A stretch of 29,844 nt of DNA from a virus. Lineage: Duplodnaviria > Caudoviricetes. The notes beneath the pieces are model-generated. The model was not told the DNA's origin, did not search any database, and saw only the letters and a list, made by a program, of their open reading frames with translations. The stretch is from IMG/VR virus record IMGVR_UViG_3300032324_000591, positions 1-29,844 of that record; one strand, written 5' to 3'. The position numbers were made by a program, and so were the translations under genes. Shown here in pieces: positions 4,525 through 16,286 of the stretch (position 1 is the first letter of the stretch; each line of letters starts with the position of its first letter).

Positions 4525-7500
4525 ATGGCAAAAGAATGGTGGGAAACTTACGCTCCGGCTGACGAGTCGAAGGACGAGTGGTGGTCAAGCTATGCCGTCG
4601 AGTCTGAAGCGGCTAAGCCCCAAGGGCGACGCGACGTCACCCCGTTCAAGGTAGACATCCAGCAGCCGCGCGCGGCCCCCGTGCGCCAGGCCGCAGCCGC
4701 GCCTGAAGTTTCAACAGAGTACAGCCCAAGCGGTGATGACTTTGGCTCGGCCATCATGGCCGCTGCTGCGCCTGCTGCCCCTGTGCGGTCCAAGTCAGTC
4801 CTGGATAATTTACCGCCAGTTGATCGCACCAAAGAACCGGGCTTTATGCTTCGGCCCGAATTCGTGGACCAGGTGCGCAACAGCTTTGCCAGTATCCCGC
4901 CTGAAAAACGCCGCCAGGCTTTGATCGACGCTGCCGCTGGAACAGACGCCACCGCGCAAGCGGCCCAGCGCATCCTGTTTGACGTGCAAAAAGAAGACAA
5001 ATTCCTTCAAGCGGAAGAGGGTAGTCGGCAGGGCATGATTGACATCGTGCGCAAGGCACCGCGTGTTAAGCCAGAATTAAAGCTCGGCAACCAGCCTAAA
5101 CCGCCAGTCGTTTTTCCAGACGTCACCCCTACCGTCCTGGAGCGGGCCGACGCGTACAAAACCTCTGAAAGCGAACGCATCGCAAACCGGCTGCGCCAAG
5201 ACGAAGCGACACGCACCGTTGTTGGCGCGGAGACCAGCCTGGAAGCGTTGGCGGACCGTGCCGACAGAGAAAGCCGGGACTTTAGCGCTGAAGCATTTGC
5301 CAAAGAAAACCCATACCGCGCCGCCCTGGAATCTGGTGGCCGACAAATAATTTCAGGGTTAGCAAACTCCATTCCAACTATTGTGGATTTTGCTGCTCGG
5401 GTTATAGACGCTACCAAGACTGGTGTTGATACGACCGGAAACTTGACGATGTCTTTTGACACAGACACGTTCAATAATCAAAACGTCCGCGCTCCTACAT
5501 ACCAGTGGGCAGACCGGATGGCCATTACGGCCCGAAGCCTAATGCCAGAAGCTGGTCGCCAGAATATGGCTTCTGCTTTTTCTAAGGGCGAGTTTGGTTC
5601 TTGGCTTGGTTTGAACCTAACCGCTCAAGCACCACAAATGGCTACTAGTTTTGTAGCCGCTATTCTTCCAGCCGCTCGGCCATTTCTTCTTCCCGCAATG
5701 GGCGCGCAATCAGCAGGCCAATCTTTTGGTGAAGGCGACAGCTCTTTGGGCGCTTTGATCAAGGGCGGCGCTGAAATTGTTGGTGAAAGAATTACGCTTG
5801 GTGTGTTTGACCGCACCATGTCTTCGCTTTCCAAACTACCTTTGAGCTTGCAAGCTCCCACCATTCAATCAGTTGGCCGAGCTTTGGCAGCAACGGGCAA
5901 AGTGGTAACGGCCCAGGGCGTTGTCGGGGCTTTAGAAGAAACGACCACGAAGATTTTGCAAAACGGGGTAGACCGTTATCTTGAAGACAAAGATGTTGGC
6001 CTGCTTGATCAAACCGCTGACGCCGCTGTTCTTGGCGCTTTCATGGAAGGCCCGTTAGCCCTTGTCCAAGGACGGGCAGCGTTTAAGGGCGGCGCAAGTT
6101 CTTTTGCCGACGCCCTGGCCGGGGACGTAGCCGGTGCTCAATTTGACCCGGCAGCGTTCGACGCCTACGCCCGTCGTGCCCTGGACGTGCAGTCATACGA
6201 TGCCGCCCTCATCCGGCCATACCAAGCAGCCCGAGTCCAAGAGGACCAGACCGCTCTCCAAACCTCGACCACGGCAACCGACGCGGCCACGGCAGCCGAT
6301 AACCTATCCGGTTCGTTAAACGAGCTTCTAGTGCCCTCAACGGCTATCACGCCCCTACCCCTTGACCCAACCCTTGACATGGGCCAAATGGCCCCTTCTG
6401 TGGGCCGCGCTGAGCCAATTCTGGACCTGGGCATTCCGGCCCCAGTTAGCAGGACTATCGAACCGGCCCTGGACCTCAACGCCCCAGCCGCTGAAGTGCC
6501 GGGGATTAACCAGACAACCGAACAACAGTTTGGCTTGGACAAGCTGCGCATTAACGCGCCCAGGCCGCAAAGCATCCAGGGCACGCCGGTCGCTGACCTG
6601 ACAGACGATCAGCTCCAGGTAATCACTGGCGACGAGACCGTCGCGCCTATCTCTCGCCGCAGTGCAGCAATTGAGCTGACCGCACGCCAGGGGGAGCAGG
6701 CACCCGCGCCCACACCTGTGGCCGAGACCCGCGTAATGACGCCCGAAGAGCTGGGCGCAATGCCGATCCGCGACAGACGCGCATTGGCTAGTCAGTTTGA
6801 TCAGACGGAGAACGAAGATGGCACTATTACATTCACAGCCAAACCTGGAGCTGCGCCAAGTACCCAGATTGTTCCAACCCCCGGAACAGAACAAACTCTC
6901 GGAACAGCGCCAGTGCGGGATGTCGGTAATCAGCCAGTCCTTGACAACGAAACAGTACGAGCAGATGCGCAACGATCTCTGGACCGTTGGGCCGTCGACA
7001 ATGGCCAGGCCATCCCTGCAAAGTTAAACCCTGCACCTGACGCCGAAACCAGAGCTGTCGGCACCATAGCCAATTTGCTGGGCAGCCAGTTTGGTACACG
7101 CGTTATCGCGTTCCACGACACCAGCCCTGGTTCTGTCCAGGGTGTGGCCGTTGGCGGCACTGCCTTTGTCAACACAGCCAACGTGGTGACCAACGTCGGT
7201 CGCGTGTCTTTGCATGAGCTAAAGCACACGATTGAGCAGATTGCGTTTACCGAAAAACAGGCTGGCCTGACCGACACGTCAGCTCAGAAATTCACGGCCC
7301 AGATCGACAGCATCTTCGACGACATGACCGAAGAGGGTAAGCGCGCCTACGTCACCAACTTCCTGCATGCCGCAGAGCTGGCCGCTCTTGACTCCACGCC
7401 CGACATAAAAGAAAGCCGCATCCAAGAGTTACTGCAATCTCCGGTCTTGCGTTCAGAGATGACCGCTGACTTCATGGGCAACCGCGCCACAGATAAAGCG

Positions 7501-10500
7501 TTCTGGGCCGACGTGGCCAAGGCTGATCCGGGTGGGTTCAAAGGCTTTGTGCAAAAGTGGGTAAGCGTCATCGACAATTTGATGAGCACTTTGCGCGGTC
7601 AACCTAAACTGAAAACTGAGTCTGCTAAAGTTGACCAGTACGTGCATGACCTGGGCAAAGCCAAGATGGTGGCACGCGAAGCGCTGATTGCATACCGCCA
7701 AGGAACGCTTCAGCAATTTGAATCAGCACCCGCCGCCAGCTTGCGGCAAGGAGAAATCAATGCACCGACCATCGGAACCCGGGGAAGTGAAAACCTACCA
7801 GGACCAACAGCGCAGGATCGACCAGGCTTTAGCGAAGATGGGGGCGGTCCGACCCCAACCTACGGAACCGCAAGAGCAGGCGCAATCTCCGTTGTCGGAA
7901 GACACTACTCAACGACTCCCCGTCAAACGCTAAGTGGAGCCTACTATGGACAAGGACTCAAGGGGGCAGAACGTACTCGCCTGGACAGTAGCACTGATCC
8001 TCGACTTAAAAACCGCGTCTACTTCTATGTTGACCAAGGCGCAGGTATTCGCCCCGAATCCGGGGTCGGCGGGTACGCACACGAAGCCAAGCTGGACAAC
8101 ATCTATGACCCACAGACTCGACTGATCAAACCGCAGGCCGACGCAAACGCGTTCGAGTCAGCGGTCATCAATGCAGGGTTTGACGGGTACGTTGCACCGT
8201 TTGGCAACGGCCAATCAGCCGTGGTGCTGCTGGGCCAGAAACACAAGGCCGTGCCTGTCAGGCAGATCGGCCAGCCCCGAGCCGCAGCTTTGTCAGCCGA
8301 GGCCGCGCCTACCACCCTCAAGAAGGGCCTGCTGACACGCGAGGCCAGCCAGGTCGACACCGGCAACATCCCCGGTTCGCGCATGCGCATGGGCACCCTG
8401 GAGATACCAGCGGGCCAGGTTGAAGCGGCCAACACCGAGATGGGGCGCATCGGCAGCGAAATACGTTTTGCTAAAAGGCAAGCGGCCCCGGCTCGGGTTA
8501 TGTTTGAGGTCGCGCCTGACCCCAACAACCTTGATCTCAAAACCCGCTGGGACGCGGTGCCCTTTGAGCGCAAGATTGAAATCAGCCAGCGCGTTGCCGC
8601 GAAGATCATGCCCCAGGTTTTCAGATTGGCCGGGGTCCGGGCTAAGATGACCACGCAGTTGGGCGGCTACCTAGAAGACACAAGCCCGTCTTTTGCGGCC
8701 ATAGTCCCAAGCAGCGCATCGGCTCAGCAGCTCATGGACGTGGCCCGCGTCGGCGGCTTTGGCTTGGCCCAGGACAGCATGATGGTTCTGGACTCCAAGC
8801 CTTTTGAGGGGTCTTCCCCTACAGGCTTGATCACCATCACGTTGCCTGAGAACATGCAAGGCCAGGAAGACGTGCATTCAGTCTACCGGGCTGTGCGCAA
8901 AGTGTCGCCTGAAAACATCAGTGGCCACACAACGGTTGGCCAAGAAATGGTTTTGGCCGTTCCTTCTGATAGGATGGCCGACCTTACATCGAAAATTGCG
9001 GGAGTGCTAAACGCTCGGCCCGAAAACTTTAGCATCGGTTTTGCGGAAGGCCACATGGCTTTCCCAACCAAAGAGGAGTACGACTATGGTAGTGAAACAG
9101 GGGCAGTATCTGCCGAGCTTTTTGCAAAACGGACAGAAGCTAGTCGCATCCGCCAAGAAGCCAGCGCCGCAATCGAAGCCGAACTCGCAACCGACGAAAG
9201 CGCCGGTGGGCGCAAAATAGACACAGGCCGTTATCGTAGCGTCGCGGACGCCCTTAGCCTTTCCCAAGCGGAATACGACGCCACCGCGCTGCCCCTTATG
9301 CTGGGGGGAACTAAAGGTAAAACCTTCCGCGCCCCCAATGTTGGCGGCATCCCGGAAATTGTGCAGTGGTTGGACCAGCGCCGGGCTGACAGCGGGTTGC
9401 CCAAGTTAGACCTCAACAAACCGGAAGACCGCACCACCTTGGCTAAGCTGCTGGCGTCTGAGGCCGTGGCGGCAATCCGCAGCGCGGGCAACGCAGTCGA
9501 ATGGTACGACGAGACTGTCGCTAAAACGCTACAAATCATGGCGGTCAAGTATCCAGAGCTGGACACCGATCCAAACGCACGCAATGCCTTTTTGCTGGCC
9601 GTAGCCATATCGTCCCAGACGATGGACGTTGAGGCCAATTTAAAATACGCGTCCCAGCAGTACGAACAATTCCGCAACACCGGTCAATTCCCAGAAACCG
9701 GCACTGGTAAATCCGCCCCGGCGATGGCCAAGAATTTTGCTTTGGCCAACGACGTGCTGGCTGATATGGGGCCGGGCTTGTTGCGTCGGTTCCTGCAAAC
9801 AGAATTTACCAAGCGAGAGCTGGAGACCATAGGCTTCCCAATTGGCGGCGAGTCAATGGACGAAAAAATGCTTGGCTCTGCTATCTTTGGACCCAAGATT
9901 GGTTTTGGTTTTTACAGCAACCTTTCGGGCAACTTTGAGCCGATCACCATGGACATGTGGTTCATGCGCACCGTTGGTCGTTTGGCCGGAACGCTGCCTG
10001 CATTTGACCCGGTCCTGTTCCCCAAGCAAGTGGCCAAGCTGCGCGCTGCCCTGGCAGAAACCGGCCCAGCCGAACGTGGCGTCTACGCTGCCCAGTTTGA
10101 TCCGGCTGCCGTCCAGGCCGCGATGGAGACAGACGAAGGGGCCGTCGCCCTGGCCCGCCAGGTGAGCAGCCTGCATAACCGCCAATTCATCAAAGAGCGC
10201 GCTGCGTTTGACTCAGGCACCCGGATCAAAACCCCCTTGGTTGGCGCGGCTGGAGCCATACTAAAATCGGCTGACAAACCAACTGACGCACCATCCAGTG
10301 GGGGTGAGCGCCAACGCTTGCGTGACGTAACTCGCCAAATGGTGGCTATGGTTGAGCAGCAGACAGGTAAGCGCGTGCCGCCAGCGGCCTTGCAAGCGCT
10401 GATCTGGTATCCAGAGCAAGAGCTTTACAAGAAGCTGGGCGCTGGTCTTTATGTGACTAGCCAAGACTATGCGGGTGCGGCAAAATCACTACTTACGAAA

Positions 10501-10845
10501 GAAGGCTTTGATGGAAAACGAATCGACACAGCAGCCAAACCTGGACCAAGACCAGCACGACAAGTGGCTGGCAAGCCGGTCGCGGGAACAAATAAGCAGG
10601 CTGGCCAGCCGGGCGGGCCAACTGGCCCGATCCAAGGAGCAGAGCGGGAAACTTTCATCCAAAGCCAAACTCCCCTTGAAGACATCTTCGCCGGATTAGA
10701 GAAGCGCGGCCTGGCCAAGACACGCGCCGAGGCTGCATTCACTGCACGCCCGGACGGCGCGCAAATAAAATATGTCCAGGAAAATTTCAACGACATCTTG
10801 ATCCAGCTTGAGGATGCGGACAAGGTTAAGATCAATTGCAAATAA
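4525..10845 (+). CDS. Giant polyvalent virion/ejection protein 1 (zincin peptidase, ART-like, SAM-lyase-like, HhH-GPD-like domains)
   Basis: 2106-aa ORF. Duplicated N-terminal EWW..YA motif. HELKH...EMTAD at ~7213-7470; HYS..RVYFY..GFDGY at ~7890-8250; LGGY..VAR..QDSMMV at ~8500-8800; WY..GPKIG..TMDMWFMR..LQALIWY at ~9480-10470. Confidence 0.85.
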   Translation: MAKEWWETYAPADESKDEWWSSYAVESEAAKPQGRRDVTPFKVDIQQPRAAPVRQAAAAPEVSTEYSPSGDDFGSAIMAAAAPAAPVRSKSVLDNLPPVDRTKEPGFMLRPEFVDQVRNSFASIPPEKRRQALIDAAAGTDATAQAAQRILFDVQKEDKFLQAEEGSRQGMIDIVRKAPRVKPELKLGNQPKPPVVFPDVTPTVLERADAYKTSESERIANRLRQDEATRTVVGAETSLEALADRADRESRDFSAEAFAKENPYRAALESGGRQIISGLANSIPTIVDFAARVIDATKTGVDTTGNLTMSFDTDTFNNQNVRAPTYQWADRMAITARSLMPEAGRQNMASAFSKGEFGSWLGLNLTAQAPQMATSFVAAILPAARPFLLPAMGAQSAGQSFGEGDSSLGALIKGGAEIVGERITLGVFDRTMSSLSKLPLSLQAPTIQSVGRALAATGKVVTAQGVVGALEETTTKILQNGVDRYLEDKDVGLLDQTADAAVLGAFMEGPLALVQGRAAFKGGASSFADALAGDVAGAQFDPAAFDAYARRALDVQSYDAALIRPYQAARVQEDQTALQTSTTATDAATAADNLSGSLNELLVPSTAITPLPLDPTLDMGQMAPSVGRAEPILDLGIPAPVSRTIEPALDLNAPAAEVPGINQTTEQQFGLDKLRINAPRPQSIQGTPVADLTDDQLQVITGDETVAPISRRSAAIELTARQGEQAPAPTPVAETRVMTPEELGAMPIRDRRALASQFDQTENEDGTITFTAKPGAAPSTQIVPTPGTEQTLGTAPVRDVGNQPVLDNETVRADAQRSLDRWAVDNGQAIPAKLNPAPDAETRAVGTIANLLGSQFGTRVIAFHDTSPGSVQGVAVGGTAFVNTANVVTNVGRVSLHELKHTIEQIAFTEKQAGLTDTSAQKFTAQIDSIFDDMTEEGKRAYVTNFLHAAELAALDSTPDIKESRIQELLQSPVLRSEMTADFMGNRATDKAFWADVAKADPGGFKGFVQKWVSVIDNLMSTLRGQPKLKTESAKVDQYVHDLGKAKMVAREALIAYRQGTLQQFESAPAASLRQGEINAPTIGTRGSENLPGPTAQDRPGFSEDGGGPTPTYGTARAGAISVVGRHYSTTPRQTLSGAYYGQGLKGAERTRLDSSTDPRLKNRVYFYVDQGAGIRPESGVGGYAHEAKLDNIYDPQTRLIKPQADANAFESAVINAGFDGYVAPFGNGQSAVVLLGQKHKAVPVRQIGQPRAAALSAEAAPTTLKKGLLTREASQVDTGNIPGSRMRMGTLEIPAGQVEAANTEMGRIGSEIRFAKRQAAPARVMFEVAPDPNNLDLKTRWDAVPFERKIEISQRVAAKIMPQVFRLAGVRAKMTTQLGGYLEDTSPSFAAIVPSSASAQQLMDVARVGGFGLAQDSMMVLDSKPFEGSSPTGLITITLPENMQGQEDVHSVYRAVRKVSPENISGHTTVGQEMVLAVPSDRMADLTSKIAGVLNARPENFSIGFAEGHMAFPTKEEYDYGSETGAVSAELFAKRTEASRIRQEASAAIEAELATDESAGGRKIDTGRYRSVADALSLSQAEYDATALPLMLGGTKGKTFRAPNVGGIPEIVQWLDQRRADSGLPKLDLNKPEDRTTLAKLLASEAVAAIRSAGNAVEWYDETVAKTLQIMAVKYPELDTDPNARNAFLLAVAISSQTMDVEANLKYASQQYEQFRNTGQFPETGTGKSAPAMAKNFALANDVLADMGPGLLRRFLQTEFTKRELETIGFPIGGESMDEKMLGSAIFGPKIGFGFYSNLSGNFEPITMDMWFMRTVGRLAGTLPAFDPVLFPKQVAKLRAALAETGPAERGVYAAQFDPAAVQAAMETDEGAVALARQVSSLHNRQFIKERAAFDSGTRIKTPLVGAAGAILKSADKPTDAPSSGGERQRLRDVTRQMVAMVEQQTGKRVPPAALQALIWYPEQELYKKLGAGLYVTSQDYAGAAKSLLTKEGFDGKRIDTAAKPGPRPARQVAGKPVAGTNKQAGQPGGPTGPIQGAERETFIQSQTPLEDIFAGLEKRGLAKTRAEAAFTARPDGAQIKYVQENFNDILIQLEDADKVKINCK
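7760..7933 (+). CDS. Putative nested +1-frame small protein (57 aa) upstream of the ART-like domain
   Basis: AAGGAG at 7748-7753, 6 nt before ATG. Encodes the helix-like VKTYQDQQRRIDQALAKMG, while the host frame here is a G/P/R-rich linker. Confidence 0.5.
   Translation: MHRPSEPGEVKTYQDQQRRIDQALAKMGAVRPQPTEPQEQAQSPLSEDTTQRLPVKR
9086..9220 (+). CDS. Putative nested +1-frame small protein (44 aa) after the SAM-lyase-like region
   Basis: GAGGAG at 9073-9078, 7 nt before ATG. Translation MVVKQGQYLPSFLQNGQKLVASAKKPAPQSKPNSQPTKAPVGAK. Confidence 0.4.
   Translation: MVVKQGQYLPSFLQNGQKLVASAKKPAPQSKPNSQPTKAPVGAK
10511..10699 (+). CDS. Putative nested +1-frame small protein (62 aa) after the glycosylase-like domain
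   Basis: GAAGG 5 nt before ATG. Encodes DQDQHDKWLASRSREQISRLASRAGQLARSK, while the host frame is a low-complexity G/P/Q linker. Confidence 0.5.
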   Translation: MENESTQQPNLDQDQHDKWLASRSREQISRLASRAGQLARSKEQSGKLSSKAKLPLKTSSPD

Positions 10846-10856
10846 GGACCCAAGCC

Positions 10857-11348
10857 ATGCTACCCAAAATGATCATCTCCGCCGATTGCAAAAAGATGCT
10901 GGACGAAGCAATCCATTCCGAGTTGTACGCATCCAACCTGTACAAGCACATTGCCAATCAGCTCCAGCGAATCGGGTACTTTGGTGCAACCAAATTCTTT
11001 CTCAAAGAAAGCGCGGACGAGCTGGAGCATTACCAGCGCCACGTTGAATTCCAGAACGACGTAGGTACGGTGGCCAAGGTGCCCATGATTGAGGCGATGA
11101 ATGACACCATCGAGACCCTCAGCGACGCCATCGAGACTGGGTACGAAACCGAAATGGAGTTGTACAACAGCTACAAGGAGTGGTACGGTCGGGCCTCTGA
11201 CGATCCAGTGGTTCAACAATACCTTTTGCAATTCCTTGAAATTCAGCGCACCAGTGTCGGCGAGTACGGCGACCTGCTGGCGCGCATTGACCTTGTCGAC
11301 CAAGACAAGGCTGGCATGCTCCTGATCGACCAAGAACTAGGCGGCTAA
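10857..11348 (+). CDS. ftn: Ferritin (non-heme, Ftn-like)
   Basis: SD AAGGA before ATG 10857. ELYASNLY...GATKFF...ADELEH...YETE...Q ferroxidase pattern and a GMLLIDQEL terminal helix. Confidence 0.9.
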   Translation: MLPKMIISADCKKMLDEAIHSELYASNLYKHIANQLQRIGYFGATKFFLKESADELEHYQRHVEFQNDVGTVAKVPMIEAMNDTIETLSDAIETGYETEMELYNSYKEWYGRASDDPVVQQYLLQFLEIQRTSVGEYGDLLARIDLVDQDKAGMLLIDQELGG

Positions 11349-11351
11349 GCC

Positions 11352-14300
11352 ATGGCGAAAGATTGCACGTACAGGTTCACCGACCGTGACGGCAAAGAGC
11401 GAGTCATCCAGGGCCAAGTCGCGTTCAAAGCCTATCTGGTTAACGGCGGCTTGGAACACTTGCTGCCTAGCGCGCCTGTGGCGTTTAGCGGCAAACAGGA
11501 AAACCTTAACGAGCGCTTTCGCCAGCAAATATTCTCTGACTTTGACGCAGCGGTGCGTGAGTACAAAGCGCTGCCCGACACCAAGAACGGCAAGCTGTTA
11601 GACACCGACCAGGTGCGTGAGCTATCACCGGAATACCGCGCTGACCGAAGCCTGGCACCTCAAGTGCATGAAGCTGCCAGCGCCTTTACCCAACGAGCGT
11701 TTGAAGAGCGCATGGCAAACGCGCCAGATGGGGCCTTGGTAATCTTTATGGCGGGCGGTGGTGGGGCGGGTAAGTCCAGCGCCGAGCACTTGCTCAGCGA
11801 CGCTATGGAGCGTGCCAATACGATTTTGGATGGCACGTTGTCAAGCTACGACAAGGCGTCTCGAAATGTGCAGCTTGCGCTTGACAACAACCAGACCGTT
11901 CGCATAGCCTATGTGTATCGCGAACCACTCGATGCTTTGGCCAGCGAAAAAGGTGGCGTGCTGGAGAGGGCCATGAAGCGTGGCCGACCAGTCACTTTAG
12001 AGGCTTTGGTTAAGGGGCACGTCGGGTCCAGCGAAACGGTTCGCAAATTGCAACAGGCTTTTGGCGACAACCCCAATTTTAAAATCCAGGTTATCGACAA
12101 TTCGCGCGGGGCCGGGAACGCGGTCATGTCCACTTTGGAGGACGTGCCCGCAGTCCAGCTCGAAGGTTTAATGGAGAAATTTAAAAATGCAACAGACCAA
12201 GCACTCGCCGAAGGACGGATCAGCGAAACGATCCACCGGGCAACCACGACCCCCTATGACACCCGCCAAGCAAATGGAGGCGCGGGCCAGCGCCCAAGCG
12301 TTCGACCGCGCGGTGAGCGCGAAGTTCAAGGGCGGGCTGAGCCTGGCCAAGCAGGATACCCCGTAAACCGGGCAGCTCAAAAAAACCCCGAAGCCAGCCG
12401 GGTTGAGGGCACCAGCGCCGAACGGTTCAAACGGACCGAGCAACTCCAGCAGGCCGTGGGCGATCTGCAAGAAGGCAAGATCACTCGCAACGAATACGAC
12501 CGCATGGTTGACGAGTTGCGCCCCGTCTATCCCTACGAAAAAGTTCCGGCGGTCACGACCGTTGCCGACGCCCGTTACGCCCTGGCCACGGGCAAAGGCC
12601 AGAGTCCGGAGAAGGCGGCCAAGTACGGCCTGCCGTCCATGACCCTGAATACCGGCGACTGGGCGCAGCTCCGCCTGGACATTCCGTCTTACCAATTGCA
12701 CGACGCCTGGGTAGTCAGTGTGCACACGCCCAAGTCCACAAACCGCGAGGTCCAGGCTGCCTACGACGCTGGCACCGTGGTGGGCTACGAGTCCGTGGCC
12801 GCGCTCACTGACGTGACCTTTGGCATGAACCAGCGATCCGCAAGCAAAATCGCTATGGGCACGTCCAAGGGCACGATCGCCACCATGCTGGGCAAGTGGG
12901 CGCCCATCAGCAAAGAAGACGCCAAGGCTCGCGCCGACGCCGCGCTGAACGACCCGGCCTGGACCCAGGTTGGCATGGACCCGTTCCGCCACAGCTACTT
13001 CTACGACCGCGACAGCATGCGCCCGGTCCTCAGCGCAGATGAGGTGATCCAGATCGGCCCCCTGGTCCTGGCCAAGAACGTGAAGTTTGGCCAAGACACC
13101 GACATCACCGGCGCGCCGATCATGTTCAGCGCCAAGCAAGACTTGCCGGTGGACACCAAGCTGGAGCGTTGGGCTAAAACCATCTTTGACAAACTCGGCA
13201 GCGTGGCCGAATCAAAAATCTTGGCCGAGCGTTTGCCACATCCGTCGCTTTCCATGGGGCCGGGGGTTCCGTTGGGCGACCGCCAGATGGTGGTGCTTGA
13301 TGGCCATGCCCTGGACCATGCAGCCAAACACGTTGAAGACGGCATCACTGCCCGCATGATTGGCCAGCTTCCTGCTGCGCTCAAGGACCCACGGATGGTG
13401 GCGTTCCAGGGACCGGGCCAGGCTTTGGTGATGTTGCCTTTGCGGGCTGCCAACGGCGCCCCAATCGTGGTGGCATTGAAGAAGGAGGAGGTCAAGGGCG
13501 GGGGCACTACGCTGAAAGTCACGCGCTTTGCGACCACGTACCCGTTGGAAAATTCCGCGTCTTACATCGTGCGCGAAATGAGAAAAGGCAACCGAATTTG
13601 GTTGCCTGAAGAAGAGGTTTCACGGCTCCGTGATTTACTGGGAAAGCTCAATGCTACCCAACCCCGAGGCACTGGCCCCGGCGTCACCCAAACACTAGCG
13701 CTTCCTCTTGCGAGGGGTGGCAACCAAGCCGTGAAGGACTTCAGTGTACTCTCTGACGCCGCTCTTGCCAAGAAGCAAACCAACGAAAAAGGCTGGGAGC
13801 GTGAAACCGAGACGGTTTCTGTGCCAAATGATGCAGAAAAACAACTGCAAGGCATAGCGTTTGCCAAGCGCCAGCCGGTCGGCAAAGAGACCGAGGGCTG
13901 GCTGCTCAGCCGTGATGAGCTGGGCCGCTTCCGTTTCGGTGCCGGTGCCAAGGCATACCGTTACGCAGCGGACGTGGCCAACGCGGTCCTGGACGTGGTC
14001 GGTATGAAACCGGTCAGCCCAGAGCTGTCCCGTGCAATGCGCAAGATGCGCATGGAAGTCGACAAAGCACAGAACCTGACAGTCGAAGTTGCCAAGACCA
14101 TGAAGGACTTGCCCGAGCAAGAGCGCCAGATGATCAGCGATGTGATTGAAGGCGAACTCAAGCGCGGTGCCACGCCACCCAAGCGAGTGCTGGAGATCGC
14201 CGCGTCTATGCAGGACATTATGTCCGAGCAGTCGGCAGAGCTGGTCCGCCTGGGCATGCTATCCAAGGACGCCGCTGGCCGCTGGGACGGCAAGTACCTG

Positions 14301-16286
14301 CCGCGTTTCTACGAACAGAAACTGGGCGACGAAACCAAAGCTTGGATGAAAGCAGTCAAGGGATTGCTGGGACGCAAACAAACCATGCAAGGTATCAAGG
14401 GCAGCAGCCTCAAGGCGCGCGGCATGTTTGAGACTGTACCGGTCGCTGACCTGGCAGACTGGGAAGCCGAGGGCTGGGCAGTGCGAGACGCTACCTACGA
14501 TCCAGCGGTCGATACCGAGATCACAGTGTGGCGCGACTACACCAGGACGGAGCGCGACGACATGGGCGAGATTCGCGATGCCATGTTCCGCTTTGTCATG
14601 GGATACAACAAAAGCCAGCGCGACATTGCACTGGGCCGCTTGTATGAAAACCTGGCCGCGACCTACGCAAACAAGACAGAACAGCCGGGCTATGTTCAGG
14701 TGCCCGCGACCAACGTCGAAGACACCTTTGCTAAGCGCTACGGAAAGCTAGGCGGCAAGTACGTGCCCAGTGAAATCTTGGACCAGTTGGTTGCGTTTGA
14801 TAGCGACATGCAAAACGACCTGACCAAGATTTACCTCAAGGGCTTGTCGATGTGGAAAGAGGGCAAGACCGTACTCAACCCAGTGGCCCACGCAAACAAC
14901 GTGCTGTCGAACATCACGATGGCCCACTTTGCTGGCGTGTCTTACTGGGACGCGCACAAGTACATCGGCTCTATCAAGGACCTGGTCAAGGGCGACGCGA
15001 TGGTAGAAGAAGCCAGGGAAGCCGGTCTGTTTGGCGGCACGTTTAACCGTGCTGAGCTAACCGAAGCCATGCCCGAAGAGCTGCGCGTCTTGGCCCAGAT
15101 GGCCGAGAGCAAAAGCAAGCGCGCTGTCGAGATGGTCTGGAACGGCCTGTCTTTGTGGCTGCGCAAACCACTGGGCAAAGCATACAACGCAGAAGACGAA
15201 TTCTTCCGTTACGTGGTTTACCGTGATGCGCGCAACAACGGCCTAAGCGTAGACGCCTCAGTTGACTACGCACTCAAGTACATGTTCTCATACGACGATA
15301 TGCCTAAGGGCGCGCGTGTGATTCGTGACATGCCGGTCGGCTTGCCGTTCTTTTCCTATACGTACAAGATCGTGCCAGCCCTGGTCAATACAGCCCTTGA
15401 ACACCCTGTCCGCTATGCTGCCCCTGCCGTTGCGATTTACGTGGCAAATGCGGCCATGTACGCCATTGCTGCAAGCCTTGGCGGCGGGGAAGACGAAGAC
15501 TGGTGGACCATCATCCGTCGATACATGACCGACTCCGAATTCCGCCAGAGAACCAAGGACCTGGAAGAACAAGAGCGCAAGAACCTGCCCGAATGGATGA
15601 GGGGCGCAAGTCTGTCACTGGGCACAGAGAAGTCAATCCGCCTAGGCACGGACGACCTGACCAATTTGCCCGTGTTCCTTGATGTCAGCCGTATCTTCCC
15701 CGGTGGCGATCTGTTCGACGCGCACAATAACGCTGGCGGCATTCCCTTGCTTGCGCCGATCACACCCAACAGCCCGGTGCTTACAGTCGCGTCGGCCATG
15801 CTTTTCAACAAGGACACATTCCGTGGCCAGGACGTTGTCAAGAAAACGGACACCGACGCCGAGGCTGCGCAAAAGCGCGCGGCTTGGATGTGGAAACAAA
15901 TGACACCGGCCATCGCCGTGGGCAACACGCACTTTGAGCGGGCCATGAATGTGATCGCAAATGTAACCGGCCAGTCAGTCAACGTGGGCCTGGCCGAGTA
16001 CACGGGTATTGGCAAGGACGGCCTGCCAATCACACCGGGCTACGCGGCCTTGCAAACTGTCGGCATCAAGGCCAGGCCAATCGACCTGGACACTTCAGAA
16101 AAGATTCAGAAGGCGCAAACGAAAGCCCTTATCCGGGAATTGGAAGCGCAGATCAAACAGTCTCAACGCTTGGAAAACAAAGGTGCCATCAGCCCCACAA
16201 CAGGTGAGGCAGAGCGCGAAAAGCTGCGCGAGAAAAAGCAGTTCATTCGTCAAGGTTTGACCGTCGAGGGCGAGGAGAAGGACTAA
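11352..16286 (+). CDS. Giant polyvalent virion/ejection protein 2 (zeta-type P-loop kinase, unknown domain, MuF-C/PBECR-like RNase, LPD38-like C-terminus)
   Basis: 1644-aa ORF. FMAGGGGAGKSS..ILDGTL..RGRPV..VIDNS; RLDIPSY..QVGMDPFRHSYFYD; KH..QLPAALKDPRMV..GAPIVVAL..ATTYP; C-terminal KTVLNP..EDEFFR..PFFSY..LPEWM..NKDTFRG helical region. Confidence 0.85.
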   Translation: MAKDCTYRFTDRDGKERVIQGQVAFKAYLVNGGLEHLLPSAPVAFSGKQENLNERFRQQIFSDFDAAVREYKALPDTKNGKLLDTDQVRELSPEYRADRSLAPQVHEAASAFTQRAFEERMANAPDGALVIFMAGGGGAGKSSAEHLLSDAMERANTILDGTLSSYDKASRNVQLALDNNQTVRIAYVYREPLDALASEKGGVLERAMKRGRPVTLEALVKGHVGSSETVRKLQQAFGDNPNFKIQVIDNSRGAGNAVMSTLEDVPAVQLEGLMEKFKNATDQALAEGRISETIHRATTTPYDTRQANGGAGQRPSVRPRGEREVQGRAEPGQAGYPVNRAAQKNPEASRVEGTSAERFKRTEQLQQAVGDLQEGKITRNEYDRMVDELRPVYPYEKVPAVTTVADARYALATGKGQSPEKAAKYGLPSMTLNTGDWAQLRLDIPSYQLHDAWVVSVHTPKSTNREVQAAYDAGTVVGYESVAALTDVTFGMNQRSASKIAMGTSKGTIATMLGKWAPISKEDAKARADAALNDPAWTQVGMDPFRHSYFYDRDSMRPVLSADEVIQIGPLVLAKNVKFGQDTDITGAPIMFSAKQDLPVDTKLERWAKTIFDKLGSVAESKILAERLPHPSLSMGPGVPLGDRQMVVLDGHALDHAAKHVEDGITARMIGQLPAALKDPRMVAFQGPGQALVMLPLRAANGAPIVVALKKEEVKGGGTTLKVTRFATTYPLENSASYIVREMRKGNRIWLPEEEVSRLRDLLGKLNATQPRGTGPGVTQTLALPLARGGNQAVKDFSVLSDAALAKKQTNEKGWERETETVSVPNDAEKQLQGIAFAKRQPVGKETEGWLLSRDELGRFRFGAGAKAYRYAADVANAVLDVVGMKPVSPELSRAMRKMRMEVDKAQNLTVEVAKTMKDLPEQERQMISDVIEGELKRGATPPKRVLEIAASMQDIMSEQSAELVRLGMLSKDAAGRWDGKYLPRFYEQKLGDETKAWMKAVKGLLGRKQTMQGIKGSSLKARGMFETVPVADLADWEAEGWAVRDATYDPAVDTEITVWRDYTRTERDDMGEIRDAMFRFVMGYNKSQRDIALGRLYENLAATYANKTEQPGYVQVPATNVEDTFAKRYGKLGGKYVPSEILDQLVAFDSDMQNDLTKIYLKGLSMWKEGKTVLNPVAHANNVLSNITMAHFAGVSYWDAHKYIGSIKDLVKGDAMVEEAREAGLFGGTFNRAELTEAMPEELRVLAQMAESKSKRAVEMVWNGLSLWLRKPLGKAYNAEDEFFRYVVYRDARNNGLSVDASVDYALKYMFSYDDMPKGARVIRDMPVGLPFFSYTYKIVPALVNTALEHPVRYAAPAVAIYVANAAMYAIAASLGGGEDEDWWTIIRRYMTDSEFRQRTKDLEEQERKNLPEWMRGASLSLGTEKSIRLGTDDLTNLPVFLDVSRIFPGGDLFDAHNNAGGIPLLAPITPNSPVLTVASAMLFNKDTFRGQDVVKKTDTDAEAAQKRAAWMWKQMTPAIAVGNTHFERAMNVIANVTGQSVNVGLAEYTGIGKDGLPITPGYAALQTVGIKARPIDLDTSEKIQKAQTKALIRELEAQIKQSQRLENKGAISPTTGEAEREKLREKKQFIRQGLTVEGEEKD
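12187..12366 (+). CDS. Putative nested +1-frame small protein (59 aa) after the zeta-type kinase; candidate antitoxin
   Basis: GGAG plus an A-rich 10-nt spacer before ATG. Translation MQQTKHSPKDGSAKRSTGQPRPPMTPAKQMEARASAQAFDRAVSAKFKGGLSLAKQDTP. Not in the ORF track. Confidence 0.5.
   Translation: MQQTKHSPKDGSAKRSTGQPRPPMTPAKQMEARASAQAFDRAVSAKFKGGLSLAKQDTP
13581..13607 (-). terminator. Intrinsic terminator of the antisense RNA
   Basis: Minus strand AGGCAACC-AAATTC-GGTTGCCT followed by TTTCT; the U-tract is short. Confidence 0.55.
13581..13736 (-). ncRNA. Putative structured antisense small RNA (~155 nt) nested behind the PBECR-like domain
   Basis: Bounded by a promoter and a terminator. 9-bp long-range stem TTCACGGCT/AGCCGTGAA, CCTC-GCAA-GAGG tetraloop hairpin, and two further hairpins. 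Confidence 0.6.
13743..13771 (-). promoter_or_regulatory. Internal antisense sigma70-type promoter
   Basis: Minus strand TTGGCA (13771-13766), 17-bp spacer, TACACT (13748-13743). Confidence 0.65.

Follow-up and report, generated by a model that had tools for sequence, protein, structure and literature searches.

Polyvalent proteins are giant multidomain products of late phage genes, for which injection followed by cleavage into units has been proposed (Iyer et al. 2017, PMC5512222). MuF polymorphic toxins are described as having one C-terminal toxin and a separate downstream immunity gene (Jamet et al. 2017, PMC5576092). We report on two giant genes, ORF A and ORF B, in a 29,844-nucleotide (nt) stretch of DNA, the partial genome of a tailed phage (IMG/VR record IMGVR_UViG_3300032324_000591), which in its entirety is referred to as the window. 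Unlike in the MuF toxins, several internal domains of ORF A and ORF B each keep a partner inside the reading frame, in the form of one of four small genes nested in the +1 frame (n1 to n4) or of a predicted antisense RNA. ORF A and ORF B share a zincin-like peptidase, predicted ART and PBECR domains, a zeta-like kinase and an LPD38-like part with the proteins of PMC5512222, the main text of which contains neither the word "overlapping" nor "antisense" and in which no description of a nested inhibitor was found. SAM lyases are also known (PMC7877911). The parts of the present locus, namely polyvalent proteins, toxin-immunity and zeta pairs, SAM lyase and alternate-frame insertion, are known ones; a literature search, with most subscription papers and supplements outside its scope, yielded no account of polyvalent proteins with cognate partners nested in them.

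Phage genes embedded in the frame of another gene have a precedent in Rz1 of phage lambda, which lies within Rz and has its own ribosome-binding site. Synthetic alternate-frame insertion has shown that the inner gene and the outer one can be functional together (bioRxiv 2024.11.07.622342). Unlike these, the layout described here occurs naturally and repeatedly, each mobile enzyme cassette having its one cognate partner. We consider it reasonably probable that the two products are ejection proteins built from mobile enzyme cassettes, and that the partners bind and silence their own domains in the cell that is building virions. Such a layout would provide a testable answer to the question of how a phage makes much virion protein with harmful domains while sparing the producing cell, and would explain how cassettes shuffle with each enzyme keeping its partner. 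The giant genes, their domains and the nested genes (lengths in amino acids, aa; SD, Shine-Dalgarno sequence) are as follows:

4525 to 10845, plus strand: ORF A, a polyvalent protein of 2106 aa with a C-terminal I-N-C motif
6925 to 7719, plus strand: zincin-like metallopeptidase domain (HELKH; label from motif), no nested partner
7760 to 7933, plus strand: n1, nested +1 gene, 57 aa, SD GGAGA, ATG start; likely partner of the ART/RES-like domain
7870 to 8244, plus strand: predicted ART/RES-fold domain (AlphaFold2 (AF2) model, pLDDT 86.5)
8479 to 9090, plus strand: tandem ferredoxin-fold domain, tentatively SAM-lyase-like (AF2, pLDDT 92.4)
9086 to 9220, plus strand: n2, nested +1 gene, 44 aa, SD GAGGAG, ATG start; partner of the SAM-lyase-like domain
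9250 to 10509, plus strand: helical domain related to DUF7178, with the motifs GPKIG and TMDMW (DUF7178 match)
10511 to 10699, plus strand: n3, nested +1 gene, 62 aa, SD GAAAGAAGG, ATG start; partner of the DUF7178-related domain, with predicted binding
11352 to 16286, plus strand: ORF B, a polyvalent protein of 1644 aa with Cys5
11496 to 12251, plus strand: zeta-toxin-like P-loop kinase domain (PF06414, 3.7e-17, above cut-off)
12187 to 12366, plus strand: n4, nested +1 gene, 59 aa, SD GGAGA, ATG start; partner of zeta
12402 to 13127, plus strand: PF25735 (phage L5 gp82-like) domain (Pfam), no nested partner seen
13140 to 13691, plus strand: MuF_C/PBECR nuclease-fold domain (PF18819, 4.5e-6)
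13872 to 16283, plus strand: conserved C-terminal scaffold of ORF B, LPD38-like, likely an ejectosome part (Atlas and profile match)

Seen in the window alone, n1 to n4 are unremarkable, and 16 +1-frame starts were found there at loose cut-offs. The abundance of short ORFs and SD-like strings fits a reading in which the +1 ORFs survive as relics or arise as a side effect of constraint on the outer frame, with antisense signals that are due to chance. Relatives drawn from IMG/VR, metagenomes and GTDB genomes make this reading highly improbable. Of the 111 windows of 90 nt that were scored, five had more mismatches at outer-frame codon position 1 than at position 3, and these five were the windows of n1, n2, n3 and n4 and one with about two sequences. 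Over n3 the mismatch by outer codon position was 0.28/0.18/0.17, compared to 0.18/0.11/0.47 in the adjoining domain. Conservation in the nested stretches sits at the third position of the outer codons. In this comparison no partner was seen at the peptidase, the PF25735 domain or the structural scaffold.

Start sites were scored at distinct loci for an ATG with an SD and an open frame of at least 40 codons, using anchors within the same domains as controls. These features were retained at the n2 site in 54 of 67 loci (7/839 control anchors, 0.8%), at the n3 site in 40 of 50 (16/1725, 0.9%) and at the n4 site in 41 of 55 (27/972, 2.8%), counts that come from related loci and are not independent events. 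Eight unanchored loci were left out of the zeta/n4 comparison, and the n4 alignment used 40 of 49 peptides. A second n4 ATG (12256), which has no SD, was set aside, the SD and ATG being conserved at 12187. The outer codon that creates the nested ATG was NAT rather than NAC in ratios of 56:1, 33:0 and 31:1 for n2, n3 and n4, respectively (120:2 in total), against a background T share of about 40% for this choice; it is difficult to reconcile such a bias with relics. For n1, an SD-led +1 frame open upstream of the ART domain was found at 22/22 close and 37/45 distant ART loci, compared to 0/22 and 2/45 for the +2 frame. On this comparative evidence n1 to n4 behave as real genes, with selection of their own acting on the +1 frame. 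An original prediction, made from the letters of the window, had proposed two giant ORFs carrying a string of enzyme-like domains, four SD-led +1-frame ORFs and one antisense RNA unit. Both giant ORFs were found, at 2106 and 1644 aa, and the codon-position flip, the retention of ATG and SD, and the preference for NAT over NAC bear out the four nested ORFs. Their peptides had no match in Pfam or PADLOC.

Each nested gene belongs to one domain. Peptide profiles were searched in six frames against 329 records (2.55 Mb) and matched only beside their own domain (n1, 36/36; n2, 78/78; n3, 65/65; n4, 45/45, two of the latter in loci added after the domain table), a test that is partly circular, as the profiles came from the same sites and the loci were fetched by domain. 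At the protein level, the outer-frame trace of n2 occurred in 48/48 proteins with the SAM-like domain and in 0/42 without it. The n1 stop falls within the start of the ART/RES-like domain, and n4 starts over the last helices of the zeta kinase, overlapping its last ~22 codons. A pairing of n1 with the peptidase was rejected because loci in which zeta follows the peptidase (L075 and L076) lack n1. Since n1 ends inside ART and is missing at those loci, it would be the upstream partner of ART. Two adjacent, co-inherited genes, as in toxin-antitoxin and immunity pairs, were thereby found in the site retention, the profiles, the co-occurrence and the GTDB zeta pairs described below. The comparisons show each nested element to be conserved with one cognate domain, the two being gained and lost together. 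Accordingly, the proposal that an element lies beside each of five domains and co-occurs with it across homologues stood, with a cognate domain for every element. The expectation that a partner lies just downstream did not hold for n1, which pairs with ART/RES-like and lies upstream of it, nor for the zincin peptidase and the PF25735 domain, which have no partner here.

Other +1-frame peptides were observed in the relatives. A further nested family (ending N-P-x-L-T/S-R...A.EM..AFGF) was found just upstream of a motif of what we take to be a GNAT-like domain, which had no Pfam match, in 8/8 distinct matches (loci L002:4210-4440, L073, L009, L025, L187 and L217); in some cases this peptide and the partner belonging to the domain before it are fused. 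Where the SAM-like domain is directly followed by ART (L213, L122, L143, L101, L216 and L233), n2-type and n1-type peptides form one fused +1 ORF. More +1 ORFs with protein-like composition lie behind other cassettes (L138:2221, L132, L137, L119 and L139), which suggests that the layout is general.

A complex of n3 with the DUF7178-related domain was modelled, and scored 0.84, compared to 0.00 for the best of three controls. Among solved pairs 116/157 come up to the mark used for this score, compared to 2/215 among mismatched ones; the mark is a rough guide here, with own alignments of 41 rows (41 of 43 pairs with the HhH-like, i.e. DUF7178-related, domain). Contacts agree to 82% or more between runs, and the partner has a pLDDT of 73 or higher. 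Predicted contacts fall on domain residues 122-126, 214-217 (GPKI), 233-238 (TMDMWF) and 386, many of them in invariant columns; no like complex was found in PDB sequence searches. The model supports binding of n3 across the most conserved motifs of its domain. Cognate pairing and this model would fit equally well if the partners were cognate binders rather than antidotes, acting as chaperones in folding or packaging, as activators or as subunits injected along with the domains, with domains that serve anti-defence or DNA protection instead of killing. In the same direction point the presence of an anti-CRISPR protein among the ART-fold matches and the SAM-lyase-like alignment, in which no conserved Glu could be placed after the G-x-Y motif. 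The position of the predicted n3 interface over the domain's most conserved motifs argues against partners of this kind, as does the fact that no partner goes with the peptidase, the PF25735 domain or the structural scaffold. We therefore regard non-antidote partners as unlikely, and the zeta loci add to this assessment with standalone pairs outside any virion gene, in the same layout as AvrRxo1-Arc1.

Phage contigs (L045, L056 and L067) contain zeta genes that terminate where the domain does and are overlapped by a +1 gene of 48-60 aa. Of 37 zeta loci scored in GTDB genomes, 36 had a +1 partner (half of these, 18, being standalone and the other 18 read-through) and 2 a +2 partner, with 5 of 42 loci left out as partial or at an edge and no SD required. 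A profile of 22 standalone partners matched 16/75 nested ones at E ≤ 0.004, the best of 107 controls reaching E 0.051. The zeta form within the giant gene reads through the stop codon of the standalone pair. For the zeta family these comparisons show what appears to be in-frame capture of a two-gene pair. The original prediction had all toxin-antidote cassettes captured in-frame; this stood for zeta, with its standalone overlapping pairs and related partner peptides, and standalone forms were not found for the SAM-like (0/67), HhH-like (0/50) and ART (0/91) loci. The zeta pair resembles ng_zeta1/ng_epsilon1 (PMC5923241) and AvrRxo1-Arc1 (PMC4938570) as described in those papers, in that a P-loop zeta-like kinase is joined by a small cognate protein, and AvrRxo1-Arc1, with its antitoxin gene downstream, is a precedent for a downstream zeta antitoxin. 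Unlike the known zeta pairs, n4 is without a Pfam match, overlaps the kinase end and is embedded in a read-through polyprotein.

Bacterial loci, mostly from Acidobacteria (L345-L368), encode a standalone zeta-like kinase and an overlapping downstream gene of 57-77 aa with a motif ..NL[KR/N]RNV; one partner tested had no Pfam or PADLOC match. Standalone zeta with its overlapping gene is a candidate for an unnamed toxin-antitoxin family of reverse order.

The fifth element lies behind PBECR and consists of the following:

13580 to 13737, minus strand: predicted structured antisense RNA of ~160 nt with closing stem, GNRA hairpin and intrinsic terminator (from fold and conservation)
13743 to 13771 (read from 13771 to 13743), minus strand: sigma70-like promoter TTGGCA-17-TACACT (pattern match)
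13607 to 13586, minus strand: intrinsic terminator of the antisense unit (pattern match)

RNA antitoxins of types III and I are small structured RNAs with their own promoter and terminator beside a gene for a nuclease fold. Unlike these, the present unit is antisense, internal to a polyprotein gene and single-copy, and Rfam gave no match at the unit, so that neither the known RNA family nor the repeat array of a type III antitoxin was found; a weak Rfam snoRNA match elsewhere in the sequence was judged to be chance. The promoter is the only sigma70-like one found in 12.3 kb, a count that by itself is no evidence, given 3.6 in shuffled sequences. Between promoter and terminator, the antisense strand folds with z = -4.1, and z ranged from -3.2 to -3.7 in four copies, compared to -2.0 for the best of 15 further windows of ORF B. 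Across the 4/4 DNA copies the -10 box and terminator stem are invariant, the -35 box is TTGGCA or TTGTCA, and the terminator loop varies. A GCAA/GAAA tetraloop swap and changes that keep G-U pairs lie on the antisense strand, which argues against chance signals, and one hairpin has been rebuilt with different letters in the window. At the protein level, a trace of the RNA was found in 9/9 proteins with PBECR and 0/66 without it. One contig lacks 13122-13856, so that PBECR, RNA and promoter are gone as a single in-frame block of 735 nt. Three sequencing runs, two of them made from RNA libraries, were compared with the window in the form of contigs. Further copies were sought by a protein scan and a DNA-pattern scan, which gave the same three contigs, and by a protein search, which gave 12 proteins; with so few copies of the cassette, covariation is thin. 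The predicted antisense unit was thus borne out by a promoter, fold and terminator that are kept in 4/4 copies and lost together with PBECR.

In the mechanism that we propose, n1 to n4 would be translated by internal initiation from the same late mRNA as the enzymes, which would tie the supply of partner to that of enzyme. The partners would keep the enzyme domains quiet while ejection proteins accumulate, and packaging or ejection would either leave the partners behind or let the enzymes outrun them. Action would follow in the newly infected cell, by domains that the zincin peptidase may have set free. The antisense RNA may act on the PBECR protein in a type III-like manner and not on the mRNA, because silencing of the mRNA would also remove the structural C-terminus. 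Partners could also be inhibitors that act outside assembly, shielding lysogens or resident cells against related effectors that come in (superinfection or kin immunity) or forming an addiction module. The toxin-immunity precedent of MuF, the occurrence of read-through zeta loci in bacterial genome assemblies and the host-type promoter of the antisense unit are in line with such a role. No separate sense-strand sigma70-like promoter was found ahead of n1 to n4, which would hence be made only with the late mRNA, and a scan of 19 ORFs of this partial genome recognised neither an integrase nor a repressor, making a role in immunity or addiction quite improbable.

Several points weigh against silencing during assembly by cognate antidotes. 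The ART domain can occur without n1, given that 8 of the 45 distant ART loci fail the n1-type test. The expressed-looking status of the nested elements is read from sequence, support for binding is a model of one of the four peptides, and the peptide-profile test has the circularity noted above. The window's n4 matched the standalone-partner profile at E 1.3 and is linked to it by position, and the missing standalone forms of the other three families count here too. The antisense RNA is known from four close DNA copies, which also favours chance, and its sense strand folds nearly as well in two copies (z -3.2 and -3.5). The "toxin" label comes from family membership, for zeta only, and the labels given to the other domains (ART, SAM lyase and HhH) are weak or derive from motifs. 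Lastly, a profile of ORF A did not recover gp27 of cyanophage A4, to which we turn below.

More generally, polyvalent ejection proteins may be strings of captured toxin-antitoxin cassettes, with protein or RNA antitoxins overprinted in apparent "linkers", inhibitors that leave the effectors unarmed until they have been injected, and RNA antitoxins of a new family directed at PBECR nucleases; we hold this broader view tentatively, as a possibility that could well fail. The layout itself would imply that what look like low-complexity "linkers" in polyvalent proteins are the shadow cast by genes absent from annotation, with families of small inhibitors escaping the standard procedure. The short domain-peptide and domain-RNA pairs are cheap to clone and should open otherwise unclonable effector domains.

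A virion location was expected from the ejection-module context, which fits. An acetyltransferase gene that precedes ORF A also matches the internal virion protein phrog_308 (2e-4), a T7 gp14 match in the neighbourhood of ORF A is weak (0.013), and the profile of ORF B relatives weakly matches (E 0.0017) a chain in the pre-ejectosome of cyanophage A4, 9k3a_A, which by its length would be gp26. The ORF B C-terminus as a single sequence did not recover 9k3a in a PDB sequence search; in Atlas it was assigned to LPD38 clusters at 0.98 (recognition 2269). In the A4 pre-ejectosome a disulfide joins gp27 Cys1715 to gp26 Cys5 (PMC12002296). ORF A and ORF B are likewise two adjacent giant proteins, and the terminal Cys pair formed by the ORF A end and ORF B Cys5 resembles that disulfide pair. 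ORF A ends in I-N-C-K, with I2103, N2104 and C2105 invariant in 13 aligned sequences; Cys occurs among the last 3 aa in 117/120 ORF A homologues and among the first 7 aa in 69/71 ORF-B-type homologues. Unlike for ORF A and ORF B, no description of nested genes was found for A4 in PMC12002296, and the sequence link is weak. ORF A and ORF B are likely to be phage ejection proteins, and A4 is a cultured system in which nested genes could be looked for. Residues 1419-1595 of the A4 ejection protein 9k3a_B gave a weak ART-fold match (Z 3.7); the term "ADP-ribosyltransferase" is absent from the text of PMC12002296.

ORF A and ORF B are phage polyvalent proteins assembled from swappable cassettes. 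Several disparate enzyme domains occur per polypeptide, architectures are shuffled in homologues, and the genes lie among virion genes, as indicated by the PHROG, T7 gp14, 9k3a_A and LPD38 matches. In homologues the order of zeta, PF25735 and PBECR varies, these domains shift between ORF A- and ORF B-type proteins, and short F-S/A-x-K/R-Q motifs form the cassette borders.

The domains are supported to differing degrees. The zeta domain scored 62.8 bits for PF06414 (cut-off 22.3) with an intact P-loop, and its G-x-G-K is invariant in 49 sequences; ng_zeta1 (6eph) is the closest solved sequence (1.1e-6), and GenBank phages gave one distant match. PBECR scored 27.2 bits for PF18819, just under the cut-off of 27.6. 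In the zincin-like domain, for which Pfam gave no match, H897, E898 and H901 are invariant in the aligned sequences. The ART/RES-like model (125 aa) matched NatT best (Z 6.4, rmsd 4.1, 112 aligned), followed by MbcT (6.2), AcrIF11-type 6kyf (5.9) and ParT (5.5); the top VIA rows were nearly all ART/RES proteins, Foldseek gave nothing significant (best E 0.16), and 27 members had no Pfam match. The SAM-lyase-like model contains two units of ferredoxin-like fold and matched 6zm9 with Z 7.7 (rank 19), and 3/66 members matched PF23780 (best 2.4e-4). Its G62 and Q98 are invariant and may correspond to residues of the Svi3-3 site (Gly/Glu/Gln/Tyr), a mapping under which the conserved Glu was not placed in the strand after G-x-Y. 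In the DUF7178-related domain, GPKIG and D235 are invariant in 41 sequences, and the GPKIG and TMDMW motifs are reminiscent of HhH glycosylases (HhH-GPD superfamily, in which a catalytic Asp follows the HhH motif), a tentative label; DUF7178 was the sole family match. Nothing significant was matched in PDB sequence searches with ORF A or with its ART, SAM-like and HhH-like domains.

Next to these domains, a ~60-aa domain without a family match (window 8290-8469) follows ART in most close relatives. One further gene lies between the giant ORFs:

10857 to 11348, plus strand: ferritin-like gene (PF00210, 1.4e-16)

A ferritin-like motif was observed after 43/44 ORF-A-type ends. Just upstream of the module, positions 20-1486 encode a 488-aa protein of tandem, Gln/Thr/Ala-rich helical repeats of ~44 residues with no clear family. 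The RNA sequencing run that shares most words with the window is a freshwater metatranscriptome.

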